A DNA stretch of 64,000 nt, from positions 98,179-162,178 of the forward strand of contig OY970120.1 of the NCBI GenBank assembly GCA_963705885.1, in the 5' to 3' direction. Position numbers and translations under genes: made by a program. The notes beneath the pieces were generated by a model. The model worked only from the letters and a program-made list of their open reading frames with translations, made no database searches and had not been told where the DNA came from. This document shows, piece after piece, positions 5,761 to 18,391 of the stretch; the stretch's first letter is position 1, and every line of letters begins with the position of its first letter. This DNA comes from an uncultured Actinomycetota bacterium. GTDB lineage: Bacteria; Actinomycetota; Actinomycetes; JACCUZ01.

Positions 5761-7311
5761 ATGGCCGAGCGCCGTTCCACCGTCACGTACCGCGAAGCCG
5801 ACCAGGACTACTTCGCCAAGCGCACCCTGCGCCGTCACGCCGGGGTCTGGTCGCTGTGGGCCCTGGGCGTCGCGGCGGTCATCTCCGGCGACTTCTTCGG
5901 CTGGAACTTCGGCCTGGAGTTCGGCTTCGGCGGGCTGCTGGTCGCCACCGTGGTCATCACGGTCATGTACCTCGGCCTGTGCTACTCCATCGCCGAGATG
6001 TCACCCGCCCTGCCGCACACCGGCGGCGCCTACTCGTTCGGCCGCACCGCGATGGGGCCGTGGGGGGGCTTCGTCACCGGCGTCGCCGAGAGCATCGAGT
6101 ACATCGTCACCCCGGCCGTCATCGTCGTCGGCATCGGCGGCTACATGGACTCGATCACCGACGACCTGTTCGGCTTCTCGATGCCGGCGCCGATCTGGTG
6201 GGCGATCTTCTACGGGCTGTTCGTCGGCCTCAACGTCTTCGGCGTCGAGGCCTCGTTCCGGTTCTCGGTCTTCATCTGCCTCGCTGCGCTCGCGATCCTC
6301 GTCGTGTTCTGGGCCGGCGCCCTGACCAAGCTCGACTTCCAGGCGCAGGCGATCGACTCGGTCGGCGGCTGGTTCCCCGACGGCATCAAGGGAGTGTTCT
6401 TCGCGATCCCGTTCGCCATCTGGTTCTACCTCGCGATCGAGGAGCTGCCGCTCGCAGCCGAGGAGTCGCACGATCCTCGCGTCGACATCCCGCGCGGCAC
6501 GATCTACGGCCTGTTCACGCTGATCGCGGCGGCGTTCCTCACGCTCTTCCTCAGCGCCGGCATCGCCCCCGGGTCGGGTGAGCTCAGCGAGTCGGCCGAG
6601 CCGCTCTTCGACGGGCTGAAGACGATCTTCGGCGACGGCACGGCCGCGTCACTGCTCGCGCTCATCGCGGTCACCGGTCTGGTCGCCAGCTTCCACACGA
6701 TCATCTTCGCCTACGGCCGCAACATCTACTCGCTCTCGCGTGCGGGCTACTTCCCGCACGCGCTCTCGGTCACCCACGGCACCCGCCAGACGCCGCACGT
6801 GGCCCTGCTGACCGGCGCCGTGATCGGCTACATCCTCGCGCTCATCCTCGAGTACTCCGGGTCCGACAGCGTCGGTGCTGCCCTGCTCACCATGGCGGTC
6901 TTCGGCGCGGTCATCTCCTACGTCATGCAGATGGTGTCCTTCGTGCTGCTCCGACGCAGGCGGCCGAACATCGAGCGGCCCTACCGCAGCCCTCTCGGTG
7001 AGTGGGGAGCCATCGTGGCCGGGGTCATCGCGGCGGTGTCGCTGGTGTCGCTGTTCTTCAACGCCGACTACCGGCCCGGGGTCGTGGGCGTCGCGATCTG
7101 GTTCGCGCTCGCGATCCTGTACTTCGCCGTGGTCGGTCGTCACAAGCTGATCCTGTCGCCGGAGGAGGAGTTCGCCACGACCGGCGGGGCGCACGGTGCG
7201 CACCTCGAGACCGAGGGCTACGGCACCACCCACGTCTCCGACATCGTCGGCGACGGTGCCGCCGCGCCGCCGCAGGACCCCGCCGCCCGCCCGCCGTCGA
7301 CGACGGGCTGA
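5761..7311 (+). CDS. ethanolamine permease (APC superfamily, Eat type)
   Basis: 516 aa polytopic membrane protein with an ethanolamine-permease-like N-terminus (TVTYREADQDYFAKRTLRRHAGVWSLWALGV); GAGAGGGA RBS before ATG 5761. Confidence 0.8.
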   Translation: MAERRSTVTYREADQDYFAKRTLRRHAGVWSLWALGVAAVISGDFFGWNFGLEFGFGGLLVATVVITVMYLGLCYSIAEMSPALPHTGGAYSFGRTAMGPWGGFVTGVAESIEYIVTPAVIVVGIGGYMDSITDDLFGFSMPAPIWWAIFYGLFVGLNVFGVEASFRFSVFICLAALAILVVFWAGALTKLDFQAQAIDSVGGWFPDGIKGVFFAIPFAIWFYLAIEELPLAAEESHDPRVDIPRGTIYGLFTLIAAAFLTLFLSAGIAPGSGELSESAEPLFDGLKTIFGDGTAASLLALIAVTGLVASFHTIIFAYGRNIYSLSRAGYFPHALSVTHGTRQTPHVALLTGAVIGYILALILEYSGSDSVGAALLTMAVFGAVISYVMQMVSFVLLRRRRPNIERPYRSPLGEWGAIVAGVIAAVSLVSLFFNADYRPGVVGVAIWFALAILYFAVVGRHKLILSPEEEFATTGGAHGAHLETEGYGTTHVSDIVGDGAAAPPQDPAARPPSTTG

Positions 7312-7349
7312 CCGCGCACCACCGTGGCGCGGATCCCCGGGGGGACGAC

Positions 7350-8081
7350 GTGGCGGCGACGCCCGCACCGCACGCGCAGCCGGCGTTCCGGGCGCTCCGG
7401 GGCGGCAACGCGTACGAGGAGACGGTCGAGCGGCTGCTCCAGGCCGTCAAGCTCGGGCAGGTGCCGGCCGGTGGACGGCTCCCCTCCGAGAGGGAGCTCG
7501 CGGCCGGCCTCGGCGTGAGCCGGCCGACCCTGCGTGAGGCCATCCGGGCGCTCGCGGGGGCCGGCTACGTCGAGTCCCGCCGCGGCCGCACCGGCGGCAC
7601 GTTCGTCCTGCCGTCGTCGGAGTGGCGCCGTGACCAGCGCGACGCGCGCCAGATCGCCCGCGACATGGGCAGCGAGGTGACCGACGCCCTGCTGATGCGC
7701 GAGGTGCTCGAGCCCGGGTCGGCCGCGCTGGCCGCTGCGGCCGACCCCCCGCCGGCGGCCGTCGCGGCGCTGCGGCAGGCCCTGGAGCACGAGCAGACCG
7801 TCGACGTCCGCGACTACCGCCCGGCGGACAGCCGCCTGCACCTCGCCGTCGTCGCGCTCGTCGGGTCGCCGTCGCTGTCCGCGGCCGTGTCAGACAACCG
7901 GATGCGGCTCAACGACCTGCTCGACGCCATCCCCCTGCTGCCACCGAACATCGCGCACTCGCGCGCCCAGCACGCGAAGGTCGTGGACGCCGTGGTGCGG
8001 GGCAGGGTGGACGCGGCCCGGGAGCTGATGGCCCGCCATCTCGACGGCAGCGCGTCGCTGCTGCGCGGCTTCCTGGTCTGA
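7350..8081 (+). CDS. GntR/FadR-family transcriptional regulator (likely regulator of the ethanolamine utilisation cluster, EpuRI-like)
   Basis: N-terminal wHTH (LPSERELAAGLGVSRPTLREAIRALAGAGYV) and FadR C-terminal domain; GTG 7350 is the first in-frame start after the permease stop. Confidence 0.75.
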   Translation: MAATPAPHAQPAFRALRGGNAYEETVERLLQAVKLGQVPAGGRLPSERELAAGLGVSRPTLREAIRALAGAGYVESRRGRTGGTFVLPSSEWRRDQRDARQIARDMGSEVTDALLMREVLEPGSAALAAAADPPPAAVAALRQALEHEQTVDVRDYRPADSRLHLAVVALVGSPSLSAAVSDNRMRLNDLLDAIPLLPPNIAHSRAQHAKVVDAVVRGRVDAARELMARHLDGSASLLRGFLV

Positions 8082-13794: not shown

Positions 13795-14628
13795 TCAGGA
13801 CACGGTGCGCAGCGCCGGGACCACGTCGTCCAGGCGGAAGGTGGGGCGTCCGAACAGGTAGCCCTGGGCGAGCCGGCAGCCCATCGCGTGCAGCATCGCG
13901 GCCTGTCCGGGCGTCTCCACGCCCTCGGCCACCACGGACAGCTCCAGGTCGCGTCCGAGCCCGAGCACGGCCCGGGCGACCTTGGTGCCGCTGTCGCTGT
14001 CGAGCGCGGCGACGAAGGTGCGGTCCAGCTTGATGAAGGTCAGGGGCAGCACCGCGACGAGGGACAGGGTCGACCAGCCGGTCCCGAAGTCGTCGAGGCC
14101 GACCCCGCACCCGAGCTCGCGCAGGTCGTGCAGGACCTTCGCCGCGTGCTCGACGTCGCCCATCGCCACGGTCTCGGTCAGCTCGAGGCTGAGCGCGGAA
14201 CCGGGCAGCCCGGTGCGCGCGAGCTCGCCGGCCACGTGCCCCACGAAGGTCGGGTCCTCCAGCTGGCGCGCGGAGACGTTCACCGAGATCGGCACCGGGT
14301 GCCCGGCCGCCTCCCCCAGCTCCGCTGCGACCTCGAGGGCCTGGGTCAGCACCCACCGCCCGAGCGGGACGATCAGCCCCGACGTCTCGGCCACGGGCAC
14401 GAACACGTCCGGACCGGGGCCGCCCGGCCAGCGCAGCAGCACCTCGGCGCCCTCGAGGCCCCCGCCCGGCAGGGCGACGATCGGCTGCACCGCGATCACC
14501 AGCTCCCGGGCGTCGAAGGCCGCCGCGAGCGGCTCCTCGAGCTCCCGGCCCGCGATGTCCCCGCCGGGCCACCCGGGCACCGGCTCGTCTGGCGGGCGGC
14601 GCGCGAACGCGGGACGGCGCCGCGTCAC
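13795..14628 (-). CDS. EAL-domain cyclic-di-GMP phosphodiesterase (stand-alone EAL)
   Basis: EVLLRW (EAL-variant), SVNVS, ELTE, DDFGTG, KLD, EGVE, QGYLFGRP motifs all present; GTG 14628 overlaps the TGA of the upstream regulator (GTGA). Confidence 0.8.
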   Translation of the reverse strand: MTRRRPAFARRPPDEPVPGWPGGDIAGRELEEPLAAAFDARELVIAVQPIVALPGGGLEGAEVLLRWPGGPGPDVFVPVAETSGLIVPLGRWVLTQALEVAAELGEAAGHPVPISVNVSARQLEDPTFVGHVAGELARTGLPGSALSLELTETVAMGDVEHAAKVLHDLRELGCGVGLDDFGTGWSTLSLVAVLPLTFIKLDRTFVAALDSDSGTKVARAVLGLGRDLELSVVAEGVETPGQAAMLHAMGCRLAQGYLFGRPTFRLDDVVPALRTVS

Positions 14629-16019
14629 GGGGACGCCGGCGTCGACGGGGTCGAGGCTGAGGGGCGGGTGGCGTCGGCGTAGGACACGTCCGGTGCCGGG
14701 CGCACGCCCGCTTCGCTCAGGGCCTGCTGGTAGGCCAGGGTCGCGTCCCCGAGCAGGCCGAGCTGGGCGAACGCGTCGGCCAGCTCGCGCCACGCGGTCG
14801 CGGCGGCCCGGGACAGGTCGAGCCCGCCCAGCGTCGCCGCCGCCTCGCGGAACGTCGCGACCGCGTCGTCGCGACGGCCGGAGGCCAGCAGCGCGCGCGC
14901 CCGGACCAGCAGGGTGTGCGCGCTCTCCAGCCGGGGGGTCGGCCCCAGGCGGGCGAGCGCCGAGTCGGCCAGGTCGAGCGCCGCGGCAGCGTGTCCGAGC
15001 AGCACCTCGCAGCGCCCCAGCTCGGTCTCGCAGTAGGCGAGGTCGACCGCGCTGCCCACGTCGGCGAGGACGGTCAGGCTGGCCGACAGCTGTCGCCGCG
15101 CCTCCTCCGGCCGCGGGGGCACCGACCGCAGCAGGAGCCAGCCGTAGGCGACCCGCAGGCGGGCGTGGGCGCGCAGGTCGTCGCCCTCGGCGTAGACCGC
15201 GAGCGCCCGCTCCGCGAGCAGCAGCGCCGAGGGCAGGTCGTCACGCTGCTCTGCCACGAGGCTCGCGTTCCAGAGCACGGCGGCGCGGGCGCGCCCCGAG
15301 CCCGCCTCGTCGACCACGGCCAGCACCTCGGTGGCCATCTGCTGGGCGCGCACCAGGTCCCCGCGCAGGTAGTAGCCACCCAGCACCGAGGAGACCAGCT
15401 CGGCGTGGACGTCGCTGCCCAGCAGGCCGGCCTGACGCACCGTGCGGAGCGCGCCCTCGCCGACGTCGAGGGCGTAGGACACGTCGCCGGCCTCCAGGTA
15501 GCACCGCACCGCGTCGACCGTGAGGCGCAGGTGCTCGCCGTGGCGGCGCTCGGCGAGGGCCTGGGCGCGCAGCGACTCGACCTCGGTGAGGGCCTCCTCG
15601 AGGCGCCCGAGGCCCTCGAGCGCGGCGCAGCGCAGTCGACGCGCCCGCCAGCCGTCCTCACGGCCCGGGACGACCCCGGCGCCCCCGGCCGGGAGGGCGT
15701 CGAGCTGGGCCAGGGCGTCGGCGGGCTCACCGTTGCGCAGCGCGAGCTCGGCGTAGTCCAGCGTGAGGCGGGCCCGCTCCGCCTGGGCGGGGTCGCCGCC
15801 TCGGCGCAGGGTGTCCGGGGAGCAGCCCAGCCGGGCCGCGAGCAGGTCGACAGCGGCCGGGGTCGGCCGGCGGCGGCCGGACTCGAGCAGCGAGACGTAG
15901 CTCGCGGACAGGTCGTCGCCGGCCAGCGCGGTCTGCGACATCCCCGCGGCCCGGCGCATCGCGCGCAGCCGCTCCGCGAAGCCCTCGGCGGGCACACCCG
16001 GCTCCGGCATCGTCACCAC
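14625..16019 (-). CDS. XRE-family HTH transcriptional regulator with large C-terminal TPR-like domain (RRNPP/Rgg-like architecture)
   Basis: N-terminal HTH (FAERLRAMRRAAGMSQTALAG...SYVSLLESGRRRPT) followed by about 380 aa Ala/Leu-rich helical repeats; 464 aa. Confidence 0.8.
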   Translation of the reverse strand: MVTMPEPGVPAEGFAERLRAMRRAAGMSQTALAGDDLSASYVSLLESGRRRPTPAAVDLLAARLGCSPDTLRRGGDPAQAERARLTLDYAELALRNGEPADALAQLDALPAGGAGVVPGREDGWRARRLRCAALEGLGRLEEALTEVESLRAQALAERRHGEHLRLTVDAVRCYLEAGDVSYALDVGEGALRTVRQAGLLGSDVHAELVSSVLGGYYLRGDLVRAQQMATEVLAVVDEAGSGRARAAVLWNASLVAEQRDDLPSALLLAERALAVYAEGDDLRAHARLRVAYGWLLLRSVPPRPEEARRQLSASLTVLADVGSAVDLAYCETELGRCEVLLGHAAAALDLADSALARLGPTPRLESAHTLLVRARALLASGRRDDAVATFREAAATLGGLDLSRAAATAWRELADAFAQLGLLGDATLAYQQALSEAGVRPAPDVSYADATRPSASTPSTPASP

Positions 16020-16104
16020 CCCAGTCTCTCGTGACCTCGCGGCCCTCTCCGGCAGTCAGGGTCACAGATGTCATCGGCGCGGTCACGATCGTACTCAACA
16101 ACTC

Positions 16105-16169
16105 TTGACAAGAAGATTGACACCCCGTTACCCGAGCCCGTTCACTCCAGGGTGTCACATCCCTTGACA
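16105..16169 (+). promoter_or_regulatory. promoter/operator region: three TTGACA hexamers (16105-16110, 16117-16122, 16164-16169) and inverted repeat TGTCA-N7-TGACA (16153-16169)
   Basis: Read directly: ctcTTGACAagaagaTTGACAcc ... ggTGTCAcatcccTTGACAcaAGGAGtcatcATG; lies in the 162-bp divergent intergenic region between the XRE-TPR gene and the small peptide ORF. Confidence 0.4.
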
Positions 16170-16181
16170 CAAGGAGTCATC

Positions 16182-16313
16182 ATGCGTCGTACCCTGACCG
16201 CCGTCGCCGCCGCCGTCGTCGCCGCCGCCACGCTCGTGGCGGTCTCGCCCGTCACGGCGACGGCCGACGCCGGGTCGCGGGTCGTGCAGTTCAACCCGCC
16301 GCGGTGCTGCTGA
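16182..16313 (+). CDS. small secreted peptide precursor (43 aa: Sec-type signal peptide with AxA site, predicted 15-aa mature peptide DAGSRVVQFNPPRCC)
   Basis: AAGGAG RBS 5 nt upstream of ATG; MRR n-region, 18-residue hydrophobic core, TATA|D cleavage motif; very high GC3; followed by a perfect terminator hairpin. Confidence 0.55.
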   Translation: MRRTLTAVAAAVVAAATLVAVSPVTATADAGSRVVQFNPPRCC

Positions 16314-16328
16314 GCCACCCTGACCGGC

Positions 16329-16360
16329 CGGTCCGGGCCTCACGGGGGAGGCCCGGACCG
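16329..16360 (+). terminator. stem-loop terminator (13-bp perfect stem cggtccgggcctc / gaggcccggaccg, 6-nt loop)
   Basis: Perfect inverted repeat 15 nt after the peptide ORF stop; GC-rich with no U-tract, typical of actinobacterial terminators. Confidence 0.5.
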
Positions 16361-16396
16361 CGCCGCCCGGCGTGACGCGGACGCGGCGGGCGCGGC

Positions 16397-16720
16397 TCAG
16401 AGACGGACGCTGAGGCGCACCCAGGCGCGGCGCCCGCACGACGGGCAGCGCATCCACGACGGGTGCCGGCCGCCGACGAGCGGCAGGTGCAGCGAGGGCA
16501 GCGCGAGCCGTAGGAGCCGCCGCGGCGTGACGACCGAGGTCACGCGGCAGGCCGAGCACTCGAGCGTGACGGCGCCGATCGCCGGCGGCTGCTCGGCGAC
16601 GCTGTAGAGGGCGCGCCGCCCGAGCGGGTCGCGCGGCGCGGCGCCTGCCTCGGCACGGACGGGGGCGGCGTCAACCCGGCGCGAGCGCAGGCGGTCGAAC
16701 CCCTGCTCCGGGGTGCTCAC
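16397..16720 (-). CDS. small putative zinc-ribbon protein (CxxC...CxxC)
   Basis: 107-aa ORF; GTG start overlaps the ParA TGA stop (GTGA); cysteine pairs CSAC and CPSC about 33 residues apart; could be spurious in high-GC DNA. Confidence 0.3.
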   Translation of the reverse strand: MSTPEQGFDRLRSRRVDAAPVRAEAGAAPRDPLGRRALYSVAEQPPAIGAVTLECSACRVTSVVTPRRLLRLALPSLHLPLVGGRHPSWMRCPSCGRRAWVRLSVRL

Positions 16721-17478
16721 GCGAACAGCCCCGCGGCGAGCTCGCGGTAGGCCTCGGCGCCCCGCGTCCGGCGGGCGGTCGTGAGCACCGAGCGACCGGC
16801 GGCCGGCGCCTCGGCGAAGCGGACCGACCTCGGGATCGCCGGCTCGAGCACGTCGAGGCCGTAGCGCCCCGCGACGTCGGCCAGCACGGCCCGGGCGTGG
16901 TTGGTGCGGCCGTCGTAGAGCGTGGGCAGGACGCCGAGCACCCGCAGGCCGGGGTTGAGGATGCGCTGCACGTCGTGGACGGTGTCGAGCAGCTGGCCGA
17001 CTCCGCGGTGGGAGAGCATCTCGCACTGCAGCGGGATGATCACCTCGTCGGCGGCGGTCAGCGCGTTGAGCGTGAGCACGCCGAGGGACGGCGAGCAGTC
17101 GAGCAGCACCACGTCGTACGCCGCGGAGACCTCGGCCAGCGCGGTGCGCAGCACGAACTCGCGGCCCGGGCGGCTGAGCAGCATGGCCTCTGTCCCGGCC
17201 AGCTCGATGGTCGCCGGCAGCAGGTCGACGCCGTCGTCCGTCGGGTGGATCGCCATGGCGGCCCCGACCCGGCCGACCAGCACGTCGTGGATGCTGAGCT
17301 CGACCACCTCGGGGTCCAGGCCCAGGGAGAACGTGAGGCACGACTGGGCGTCCAGGTCGACGAGCAGCACCTTGCGCCCGCGCTCGGCGAGGGCGCTGCC
17401 GAGCGACGCGACGGTGGTGGTCTTGGCCACACCGCCCTTCTGGTTCGCCACGGCGACAGTGCGGGTCACGGCGGCCAT
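16717..17478 (-). CDS. ParA/Soj-family P-loop ATPase
   Basis: Deviant Walker A KGGVAKTT, 253 aa, typical ParA length. Confidence 0.85.
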   Translation of the reverse strand: MAAVTRTVAVANQKGGVAKTTTVASLGSALAERGRKVLLVDLDAQSCLTFSLGLDPEVVELSIHDVLVGRVGAAMAIHPTDDGVDLLPATIELAGTEAMLLSRPGREFVLRTALAEVSAAYDVVLLDCSPSLGVLTLNALTAADEVIIPLQCEMLSHRGVGQLLDTVHDVQRILNPGLRVLGVLPTLYDGRTNHARAVLADVAGRYGLDVLEPAIPRSVRFAEAPAAGRSVLTTARRTRGAEAYRELAAGLFA

Positions 17479-17533
17479 TGTGCCCGCCGGTGCCCCATGG
17501 CTGTCACGGGGAGGGCGGGTAGCGTCCTGCACT

Positions 17534-18391
17534 GTGAGCACACCGCCCTTCCTCGAGCCGCCCGACGGCGTGGATCGAGCCGAAGTCCCCGCCGCGAGCG
17601 GCCGCCTCGCCGCCCTGGTCGGCTCCCCGGACACCCCGCAGCCCCGCCCGCCCGTGCTGCTCGTGCCGGGCTTCACCGGGTCGAAGGAGGACTTCATCGG
17701 CGTGCTCGCGGCGATCCGCGCCGCAGGTCACCCGCTCGTGGCCATCGACCAGCGAGGACAGTACGAGTCGCCCGGTGACGGCGACCCCGCGTCCTACGAC
17801 ATGAAGGCCCTCGCCGAGGACGTCCTCGCGGTGGCCCGCCACCTCGGCGAACCGGTACACCTGCTCGGGCACTCCTTCGGTGGGCTGGTCGCGCGGGCCT
17901 CGACGCTGGCCGAGCCGGGCGCCGTGCGGTCCCTGACGCTCATGTCCTCCGGCCCCGCGGCGATCCCGCACCCGACCGCCAGCAACCTCCAGCTGGTCAT
18001 CTCGGTGCTTCCGGGCATGGACCTGGAGTCGGTCTGGGTCGCCAAGCGGCAGATGGAGGCCCAGACCGAGGCCCGGCCGCCGGCACCGCACATCGAGGAG
18101 TGGTTGCACCAGCGCTACGTCACCCATGACCCGGTGTGCGTGCGGCGGATGGCCGAACAGCTGCTCACCGAGGAGGACCGGGTCGACGAGCTGGCCCAGC
18201 TCGACGTCCCGACCCACGTCATCCACGGCAGCGACGACGACGCCTGGACGCCTGCGGAGCAGGCCGAGATGGCACGTCGGCTCGACGCCGCGCACACGGT
18301 GATCGAGGACGCGGCGCACTCGCCCGCCGCGGAGCGTCCGGAGGCCACCGCCCAGGCGCTCCTGGCGTTCTGGGCCTCCCTGCACCCGTGA
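17534..18391 (+). CDS. alpha/beta hydrolase fold protein
   Basis: GHSFGG nucleophile elbow, C-terminal HGSDD...AAHSP; GTG start 17534. Confidence 0.75.
   Translation: MSTPPFLEPPDGVDRAEVPAASGRLAALVGSPDTPQPRPPVLLVPGFTGSKEDFIGVLAAIRAAGHPLVAIDQRGQYESPGDGDPASYDMKALAEDVLAVARHLGEPVHLLGHSFGGLVARASTLAEPGAVRSLTLMSSGPAAIPHPTASNLQLVISVLPGMDLESVWVAKRQMEAQTEARPPAPHIEEWLHQRYVTHDPVCVRRMAEQLLTEEDRVDELAQLDVPTHVIHGSDDDAWTPAEQAEMARRLDAAHTVIEDAAHSPAAERPEATAQALLAFWASLHP

Follow-up and report, generated by a model that had tools for sequence, protein, structure and literature searches.

A widespread family of small Cys-Cys peptides linked to an XRE-TPR regulator and an EAL-domain gene in Actinomycetota, and its possible role in RRNPP-like signalling

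A stretch of 64,000 nucleotides (nt) from an uncultured Actinomycetota bacterium of the lineage JACCUZ01 (assembly GCA_963705885.1, contig OY970120.1, positions 98,179 to 162,178 of the forward strand), analysed as a whole and referred to below as the window, contains a 43-amino-acid (aa) open reading frame (ORF) whose product ends in two adjacent cysteines. This CC-peptide gene is real, its product has an export-type architecture, it is genetically linked to a regulator gene and to a gene for an EAL-domain protein, and a conserved operator precedes it. The regulator, which combines an XRE-family helix-turn-helix (HTH) with tetratricopeptide repeats (TPR), the EAL gene and the operator array are what give the small ORF its meaning. 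By analogy with known systems, we lean towards reading the ORF as the pro-peptide gene of an RRNPP-like pheromone-receptor pair, which would control the turnover of cyclic di-GMP (c-di-GMP) via the linked EAL gene. The elements of the locus, in positions of the window, are the following.

13795-14628, minus strand: gene for a stand-alone EAL-domain c-di-GMP phosphodiesterase (predicted; PF00563), 277 aa; its start overlaps the regulator stop by 4 nt
14625-16010, minus strand: gene for the XRE-family HTH and TPR regulator, 461 aa, presumed intracellular receptor; divergent, 171 nt from the peptide gene
16011-16141, no strand: rest of the divergent intergenic region, with more TGAC/GTCA tetramers, a GTCA cluster at 16055-16085 and direct TTGACA repeats at 16105-16110 and 16117-16122
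16142-16179, no strand: array of four alternating half-sites at 11-nt phasing, TCAC (16142), GTCA (16154), TGAC (16165) and GTCA (16176)
16171-16176, plus strand: Shine-Dalgarno sequence AAGGAG, 5 nt before the ATG, inside the last operator palindrome TGACACAAGGAGTCA (16165-16179)
16182-16313, plus strand: CC-peptide gene, 43-aa pre-peptide
16325-16365, plus strand: GC-rich hairpin directly 3' of the peptide stop codon, terminator-like, without a U tract

Anatomy of the peptide gene

The coordinates and the translation (MRRTLTAVAAAVVAAATLVAVSPVTATADAGSRVVQFNPPRCC, then stop) given in a preliminary description of the ORF were confirmed. The G+C content at third codon positions, described there as close to complete, was 0.95, with 0.72 at first and 0.65 at second positions, and AAGGAG constitutes the canonical ribosome-binding site (RBS) that had been claimed. 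Signal-peptide calls here and below were made with a crude rule-based scan, not with SignalP. The scan found an MRR n-region, an 18-residue hydrophobic core and a small-x-small site between ATA and D, in agreement with the AxA site noted earlier. The signal peptide would thus be MRRTLTAVAAAVVAAATLVAVSPVTATA and the exported part DAGSRVVQFNPPRCC, the tiny Cys-Cys-terminated mature product that had been predicted. A longer ORF of 81 aa starting at 16068 was rejected, as it has no Shine-Dalgarno sequence and its N-terminal extension is not conserved. Export by the Tat pathway was likewise rejected: the twin arginine of the window peptide is not kept in its relatives (MAKK, MFRK, MNRT, MPRP and others), so that Sec export is likelier.

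The gene had also been credited with its own terminator and promoter. A 13-bp GC stem sits within the longer hairpin at 16325-16365, which has a folding energy of -46.3 kcal/mol (z = -4.2) that was equalled in none of 200 shuffled sequences. Of the terminator, the strong hairpin was confirmed, but the consensus scan revealed no T-tailed terminator. Nor did that scan reveal a complete sigma-70 promoter, and the TTGACA-like hexamers that suggested one belong to the array of TGAC/GTCA half-sites. The promoters of the peptide gene and of the regulator presumably lie within 16011-16141. Between 15800 and 16600 no Rfam family reached its gathering score and all matches were weak; they included one over the hairpin to the Streptomyces small RNA Scr3920, with 24 bits against a gathering score of 88.

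Conservation and family of the CC peptide

A homology search with the 43-aa peptide returned only the peptide itself, and the family came to light only via the regulator loci. An alignment of 19 regulator homologues was used to gather 80 genomic loci (loci are designated here by L numbers, such as L001), whose regulators are 39-74% identical to that of the window. ORFs of 25-110 aa were accepted if they had one or more basic residues close to the N-terminus, a hydrophobic stretch of 12 residues and CC in the last six residues. An adjoining ORF of 39-68 aa with a signal peptide, and with CC followed by no more than five residues, was present at 76 of the 80 loci, and nearly all ORFs that passed the filter beside a regulator had a Shine-Dalgarno sequence. 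With the Shine-Dalgarno sequence included, the same filter retained only the ORF at 16182-16313 in the entire window, and about 3 extra matches were obtained in about 530 kb of flanking sequence. Lack of conservation in syntenic loci had been named in advance as part of what would speak against the gene; the equivalent ORFs at 76 loci settle this point decisively in its favour. The remaining four loci comprised one cut by a contig end 270 nt upstream of the regulator, one with a frameshifted copy that keeps an intact ...HPPVCC-stop in a different frame, one with a Streptomyces copy whose ...NVTGCCR... is internal, and one in which no peptide was found. In the frameshifted locus (L008, 2722-2863, minus strand) the signal peptide is read in one frame and ...HPPVCC-stop in another, while the sister locus L007 is intact, indicating either a homopolymer error of long-read sequencing or a recent pseudogene. 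The filter also returned ORFs with runs of 7-13 consecutive Cys codons in L035 (7025-7180, minus strand) and L040 (about 5988-7268, minus strand), which look like off-frame readings of a trinucleotide repeat in another gene, outside the peptide family.

Signal-peptide anatomy was observed in all 77 peptides scanned, with an exact AxA site in 63 and a median predicted exported length of 20 residues. In an alignment of 56 sequences the only invariant columns were M1 and the two cysteines. Conservation was concentrated at the extreme C-terminus, where the invariant CC follows a Pro- or Gly-rich turn, while signal peptide and linker were variable. The FNPPRCC-like segment whose conservation was to be checked is thus not the conserved element; the CC with its preceding turn takes the form PPxCC in the window clade, GxxGCC[RK]xx in the Cellulomonas and Actinotalea loci and DIP[LV]CC in Streptomyces. 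The peptide clades track the regulator tree and differ in C-terminus and in position as follows.

Window clade (L002-L012): ...PP[T/R/V/I]CC-stop, with PTRCC in L005; divergent from the regulator
L013, L033 and L078: ...NPPSCC, ...QPWCC and ...GPPHCCR, respectively; downstream of the regulator, same strand
L015 and L018: ...GPP[V/H]CC; divergent from the regulator
Cellulomonas, Actinotalea and Cellulosimicrobium: ...G-x-x-G-CC-[R/K]-x(1-4); upstream of the regulator, same strand
Cellulomonas fimi, C-terminal peptide: DDTVITPFSGGATGCCRQII
Streptomyces chromosomes: ...DIP[L/V]CC; downstream of the regulator, convergent
Streptomyces megaplasmid pSMg1-1: ...DIPLCC; downstream of the regulator, same strand

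Two other readings of the ORF can be judged from these data. A cysteine-sensing leader peptide acting by translational attenuation, or a chance ORF in GC-rich DNA, is hardly credible. A short ORF that ends in tandem codons for one residue does recall attenuator leaders, and in Cellulomonas the ORF precedes the regulator on the same strand. However, the window ORF is divergent from the regulator and has a hairpin of its own, the Streptomyces ORF lies downstream of or convergent with the regulator, and the signal-peptide architecture is universal among the peptides. Frame, start, Shine-Dalgarno sequence and stop are moreover kept across regulators down to about 40% identity, the ratio of nonsynonymous to synonymous differences (pN/pS) was 0.44 over 60 moderately diverged peptide pairs, and the few matches in the flanks show how rarely the filter is passed elsewhere. 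The comparative data effectively refute both forms of this explanation, and the 43-aa ORF is confirmed as a genuine, translated micro-gene whose product is, judged by its anatomy, exported. The Cys-Cys terminus would be the functionally important part of the peptide.

In the other reading, the first Cys is a lipobox cysteine, and lipoprotein signal peptidase (Lsp) leaves a lipidated C-C(-x) stub and frees the preceding segment as the signal. Enterococcal sex pheromones, which are cut from lipoprotein signal peptides, provide a precedent, and the ...[AS][ST]G-C of the Cellulomonas and Actinotalea loci fits a relaxed lipobox. The residues before the Cys in the window clade (PP[R/T/V/I]; PPR-C in the window) and in Streptomyces (IP[L/V]) nevertheless break the rule of Gly, Ala or Ser at position -1, and the Cys lies 10-25 residues past the hydrophobic core, with a good AxA site much earlier in most peptides. 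The window peptide itself has no lipobox of the form [LVI][ASTVI][GAS]-C after the core, its Cys lying about 15 residues past the predicted signal-peptidase I site. Lipoprotein processing therefore appears very improbable.

A reciprocal search with a profile of the 56 peptides returned 72 further proteins of 41-82 aa. Those really named among them were all called "hypothetical protein", except for one with the JGI label "biotin transporter BioY", which is evidently mistaken. Three of these matches were looked up, in two places each, and all three lay directly upstream of an XRE-TPR gene that was followed by a convergent EAL gene. The exact 43-aa sequence is present in the NCBI, ENA and Logan protein sets, and homologues hold RefSeq accessions as "hypothetical protein"; the view that the ORF is unannotatable and missed by gene callers was therefore wrong. 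The CC peptides are a widespread, unnamed family that no Pfam or NCBIfam family covers: scans of five peptides with both collections gave only signal-peptide noise and matched no precursor family.

Operator-like half-sites upstream of the peptide gene

The 171-nt intergenic region contains 11 TGAC/GTCA tetramers where 1.32 are expected and is the densest such stretch in the window. In an alignment of 12 intergenic regions from related loci the half-sites were found at -39, -28, -17 and -6 from the start codon. The 45 nt before the ATG read TTGACTC-N5-GTCAC-N7-TGAC-N5-GGAGTCA-N2-3-ATG in the window clade, so that the last pair of half-sites embraces the Shine-Dalgarno sequence. GGAGTCA preceded the ATG in 10 of the 12 window-clade sequences compared (the window and L002-L011), and L012 differs. 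The Cellulomonas and Actinotalea loci have a 17-bp palindrome, GTCAT-N7-[AG]TGAC, 38-59 nt upstream of the peptide gene, with TGAC often abutting the Shine-Dalgarno sequence. Of 77 loci, 63 had a palindrome of either polarity in the 120 nt before the peptide gene, compared with 0.036 expected per 120 nt. Over the whole window TGAC-N7-8-GTCA occurs 7 times against 2 expected, the motif being too short to define a regulon.

The recognition helix of the adjacent regulator, S35-x-S37-Y38-x-S40-L41-x-E43-x-G45-x-R47, was nearly invariant in 81 regulators, which matches the conservation of the half-site, and we infer that this regulator binds the TGAC/GTCA half-sites. A single GTCAT half-site was also observed about 35-40 nt upstream of the start of the convergent EAL gene in L084 (6673-6777), with equivalents in L082 and L086; it is possibly a site of the regulator or part of a -10 element.

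The divergent XRE-TPR regulator

The HTH of the regulator matched HTH_31 (43.5 bits) and HTH_3 (37.5 bits), both over the cut-off. The remainder matched TPR_12, with TPR_MalT below threshold, and the protein has no other sensory domain. In the TPR part, W247, N248, R280, R284 and W407 were invariant in the 81 regulators. Pairing of a receptor cysteine with the peptide thiols was rejected, as Cys327 occurs in 48% of these regulators and no Cys column is conserved. An AlphaFold2 model (pLDDT 88.5, pTM 0.72) showed the HTH followed by about 9 helical-repeat pairs. Rap, MalT, PlcR and NprR proteins were its closest bacterial structural neighbours, which ranked as follows.

Rank 2: phage phi105 Rap with bound peptide, 22.1
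Rank 3: RapH, 21.6
Rank 8: MalT domain III, 19.4
Rank 11: pLS20 Rap, 19.0
Rank 12: RapI, 18.5
Rank 25: PlcR-PapR, 15.9
Rank 27: NprR-NprX, 15.7

When a profile of the regulator family was compared with the PDB, the match to PlcR (E = 4e-5) covered the HTH together with the first repeats, and that to ComR was confined to the HTH. Among NCBIfam models, NF053720 (NsdA family) was aligned over profile positions 9-417 of 432, with 22.8 bits (E = 5.7e-5) against a cut-off of 75. The regulator family comprises about 700 representatives when clustered at 50% (E <= 1e-30).

The EAL gene and the architecture of the module

The EAL protein of the window keeps all canonical motifs in the alignment (EVL, N, ELTE, DDFGTG, KLD, EGVE and QGY), as expected of a canonical c-di-GMP phosphodiesterase. 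Its gene is translationally coupled to that of the regulator by the 4-nt overlap and is therefore probably an operon partner and an output of the system. When the loci were queried with the window EAL protein and two divergent Cellulomonas EAL-like ORFs, 52 of the 80 loci proved to have an EAL-like gene directly beside the peptide-regulator pair, and the arrangements numbered at least five:

Regulator followed by EAL in an operon (window clade)
Peptide followed by EAL
Regulator followed by peptide and then by EAL
EAL after the regulator, in convergent orientation (Actinotalea type)
Peptide gene transcribed divergently from one or two EAL-like genes (Cellulomonas)

The position of the peptide gene relative to the regulator also varies by clade (divergent, same strand upstream or downstream, or convergent downstream), while adjacency is kept. 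That the linkage of peptide, regulator and EAL genes survives such rearrangement argues for a functional three-gene module. At the three reciprocal matches the order was comEA-comEC-holA, then the CC peptide followed by the XRE-TPR regulator, then EAL, rpsT and, further on, lepA, with EAL and rpsT in the opposite orientation. This core chromosomal position between comEC-holA and rpsT-lepA is conserved, so that the module looks vertically inherited in those genomes.

About 30 Cellulomonas-type loci have two tandem short EAL-like genes (e.g. L062, 1099-1749 and 1820-2554, both minus strand). One product of the pair is semi-canonical (EFL...DDF...) and keeps most catalytic residues; the other has lost the catalytic Glu, Asn and DD and may act as a receptor for c-di-GMP or as a protein-binding adaptor. 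In the metagenomic relative P0101 one 467-aa product appears to join the TPR C-terminus to the EAL domain, either by genuine fusion or through a frameshift.

Neighbours of the module were comEC, holA, rpsT and lepA, or a helicase gene and a ParA-like gene, and neither a histidine kinase nor a modification enzyme was conserved in the loci and reciprocal places examined. This bears on the earlier suggestion of a precursor of the class of ribosomally synthesised and post-translationally modified peptides (RiPPs), in which enzymes from other loci would convert the Cys pair (to a thioether, a thiazoline or the like). The product is small, contains cysteines and has a conserved C-terminal core, and some RiPP modification enzymes are encoded apart from their precursors. 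In none of the five arrangements, however, was a gene for a radical-SAM, YcaO, LanM/LanB or cyclodehydratase enzyme, or for a peptidase or transporter, conserved beside the cassette; all 77 peptides have a Sec signal peptide instead of a RiPP leader, and the precursor families of Pfam and NCBIfam were unmatched. A RiPP precursor is thus quite unlikely, and the suggestion was not borne out. Of the three functions offered in the preliminary description, only that of a signalling peptide was backed by the genomic context; the description of the ORF had drawn attention neither to the XRE-TPR regulator nor to the EAL gene or the operator array.

Other genes were also observed beside the module. In all six Actinotalea-type places (L082-L087, at about 7000-8000) genes for a PemK-type toxin and a dodecin lie between rpsT and lepA. 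In the window, a gene at 16397-16720 (minus strand), convergent with the peptide gene, encodes a 107-aa zinc-ribbon-like protein with two CxxC pairs and no Pfam match, and overlaps the end of a ParA/MinD-type ATPase gene (16717-17697, minus strand). This pair is kept in the two closest loci (L002 and L011) but not beyond, and is therefore probably unrelated to the module. On plasmid pSMg1-1 of Streptomyces sp. Mg1 (L088, 4842-5054, plus strand), a second small secreted hypothetical protein of 70 aa without CC is encoded directly after the DIPLCC peptide; an adjoining BTAD/SARP-type regulator gene hints at control of secondary metabolism in Streptomyces.

Distribution

All informatively labelled related loci were from Actinomycetota, with the single exception of L001. 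Carriers include Cellulomonas, Actinotalea, Cellulosimicrobium, Streptomyces and metagenome-assembled genomes labelled Frankiaceae, Mycobacteriales and Sporichthyaceae. L001 (JAJAYQ010000108.1), from a metagenome-assembled genome labelled Spirochaetaceae, has an EAL gene and a regulator 68% identical to that of the window; it is probably mis-binned, since all other labelled relatives are from Actinomycetota. None of the informatively labelled loci was from Bacillota or their mobile elements, where RRNPP systems occur. The regulator was present in 16 records of a plasmid collection, 14 from Streptomyces (large and mostly linear), one from Streptosporangium and one from Nonomuraea; the last, of 11.85 Mb, is probably a chromosome. 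A phage origin was rejected, as 50,697 phage records yielded one weak partial regulator match.

A peptide-receptor model and a regulated-effector alternative

The RRNPP-like reading is favoured because a Sec pro-peptide conserved at its C-terminus occurs together with an HTH-TPR protein encoded next to it and with a palindromic box before its gene, and because no kinase or modification enzyme is nearby. Phr, PapR, NprX and AimP pro-peptides have the same pattern of a conserved C-terminus with a variable signal peptide and linker. In such a system the 43-aa pre-peptide would be exported by Sec and, as its sequence anatomy suggests, cut by signal peptidase I after ATA. A peptide of about 15 residues, or a shorter C-terminal fragment with ...NPPRCC, would accumulate outside the cell. 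By analogy with known receptors it would then re-enter, probably via an oligopeptide permease, and bind the concave TPR face of the regulator. The regulator, probably as dimers, would bind the phased half-sites, a conserved motif that overlaps the RBS of the peptide gene, and would thereby close an autoregulatory loop. Occupancy by the peptide would alter expression of the regulator-EAL operon, which is genetically linked to the peptide gene, and hence c-di-GMP hydrolysis and the switching of c-di-GMP-controlled behaviour. The vicinal cysteines may be the element recognised by the receptor, and it is a matter of speculation whether they make signal activity dependent on the thiol/disulfide state.

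Several observations weigh against a pheromone-receptor pair. Adjacency and co-regulation of peptide and regulator fit a regulator-target relationship equally well, and the overlap of operator and RBS fits activation as well as repression. The regulator reaches none of the curated Pfam and NCBIfam models of RRNPP type. A Foldseek search with its model returned generic TPR proteins, with RapI at rank 32, and the structural neighbour at rank 1 is the eukaryotic peptide-binding TPR protein LGN (24.2), a generic fold match. According to two abstracts, known RRNPP pheromones are linear, unmodified peptides that share no invariant pair of residues (PMC12998947; 10.1101/2025.10.09.681396). An invariant CC across regulators of about 40% identity is unusual for a ligand that determines specificity, and could point instead to a role in metal binding, redox chemistry or covalent attachment. 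Peptides of the Cellulomonas clade continue for 1-5 residues after the CC, so that a C-terminal pheromone would need extra processing there.

These points lead to an alternative in which the exported peptide is a regulated extracellular effector that acts through its vicinal thiols (binding of Cu, Zn or Hg, redox buffering or envelope disulfides), while the regulator answers another signal. MerA, MerT and the C-terminus of thioredoxin reductase contain vicinal Cys pairs that are active towards metals or in redox reactions. That CC is the sole invariant feature across clades suits a chemical function better than a specificity code, and the operator marks the peptide gene as a target of the HTH protein. 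Against this, a peptide of 13-20 aa with two cysteines and no other conserved ligand residues would be a poor stand-alone metal chelator, and no metal transporter, oxidoreductase or metalloregulator is conserved nearby. An effector would also leave unexplained the strict one-to-one pairing, across gene orders, with a protein of a peptide-binding fold, and the lack of any other sensory domain in that protein. We regard an effector role as rather unlikely, though it is the most serious competitor of the RRNPP-like reading.

A broader proposal, of quorum sensing of RRNPP type that is vertically inherited throughout Actinomycetota, with thiol/disulfide-sensitive CC pheromones and c-di-GMP degradation by the EAL protein as its direct output, is made tentatively, and we incline slightly against it in this full form. 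If it were true, the module would be the first RRNPP-like system outside Bacillota, its extent being that of the approximately 700 regulator clusters. It would bring a new pheromone chemistry, the invariant vicinal dithiol, and, for actinobacteria, a direct genetic tie of c-di-GMP turnover to peptide signalling. Lifestyle switches under second-messenger control would be coupled to cell density, and perhaps to the redox state outside the cell, in Cellulomonas, in Actinotalea and in some Streptomyces, also where the module is on megaplasmids. Cultured carriers include Cellulomonas fimi, C. cellasea, C. biazotea, Actinotalea fermentans, Cellulosimicrobium cellulans and Streptomyces sp. Mg1. A concrete hypothesis is thereby available for an uncharacterised "hypothetical protein" family and for an unnamed regulator family.

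Comparison with known systems

WhiJ-type regulators of Streptomyces likewise combine an XRE HTH with genetic pairing to a very small protein, of the DUF397 family. To our knowledge, DUF397 proteins are cytoplasmic and have neither a signal peptide nor a CC motif, and WhiJ-like regulators lack the TPR superhelix found here; DUF397 was not matched in the Pfam and NCBIfam scans of the regulator and the peptides. The NsdA family of Streptomyces resembles the regulator in being actinobacterial, about 430-460 aa long and TPR-like over nearly its full length. With the low score given above, however, the window regulator is at most a distant relative, and the NsdA papers searched describe no peptide partner or HTH-dependent operator. 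The MalT-type TPR (domain III of STAND proteins) differs in context, as the window regulator has no NB-ARC/AAA ATPase and no LuxR-type HTH but an N-terminal XRE HTH.

The RRNPP surveys consulted place these systems in Firmicutes/Bacillota and report none in actinobacteria (PMC10075063, PMC9765709, PMC12700828). Signalling in Actinomycetota is described as based on small molecules (gamma-butyrolactones and similar), with peptide/intracellular-receptor systems as a hallmark of Bacillota (PMC10075063; PMC4748050). A peptide-receptor pair of this kind is also missing from a review of quorum sensing in actinobacteria. The module was undescribed in the literature searched on RRNPP in Actinobacteria and Streptomyces, TPR pheromones, c-di-GMP with XRE and EAL, and NsdA, although an earlier description elsewhere is possible.

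The module shares with the RRNPP (RRNPPA) systems PlcR-PapR, NprR-NprX, Rap-Phr, PrgX, Rgg-SHP and AimR-AimP an adjacent, Sec-exported pro-peptide with C-terminal conservation and a cytoplasmic TPR-superhelix protein. With PlcR, NprR, PrgX, Rgg and AimR it also shares the N-terminal XRE-type HTH of the receptor, and with RRNPP systems in general the palindromic box upstream of the peptide gene, which implies autoregulation. It differs from them in its occurrence in Actinomycetota, in its larger regulator (about 460 aa, about 9 repeat pairs), which has no significant match to curated RRNPP sequence models, in an invariant vicinal Cys-Cys found in no described RRNPP pheromone, and in its recurrent linkage to an EAL c-di-GMP phosphodiesterase. 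By this comparison the module appears to be RRNPP-like in architecture; its new features would be the phylum, the invariant Cys-Cys signature and the c-di-GMP output.

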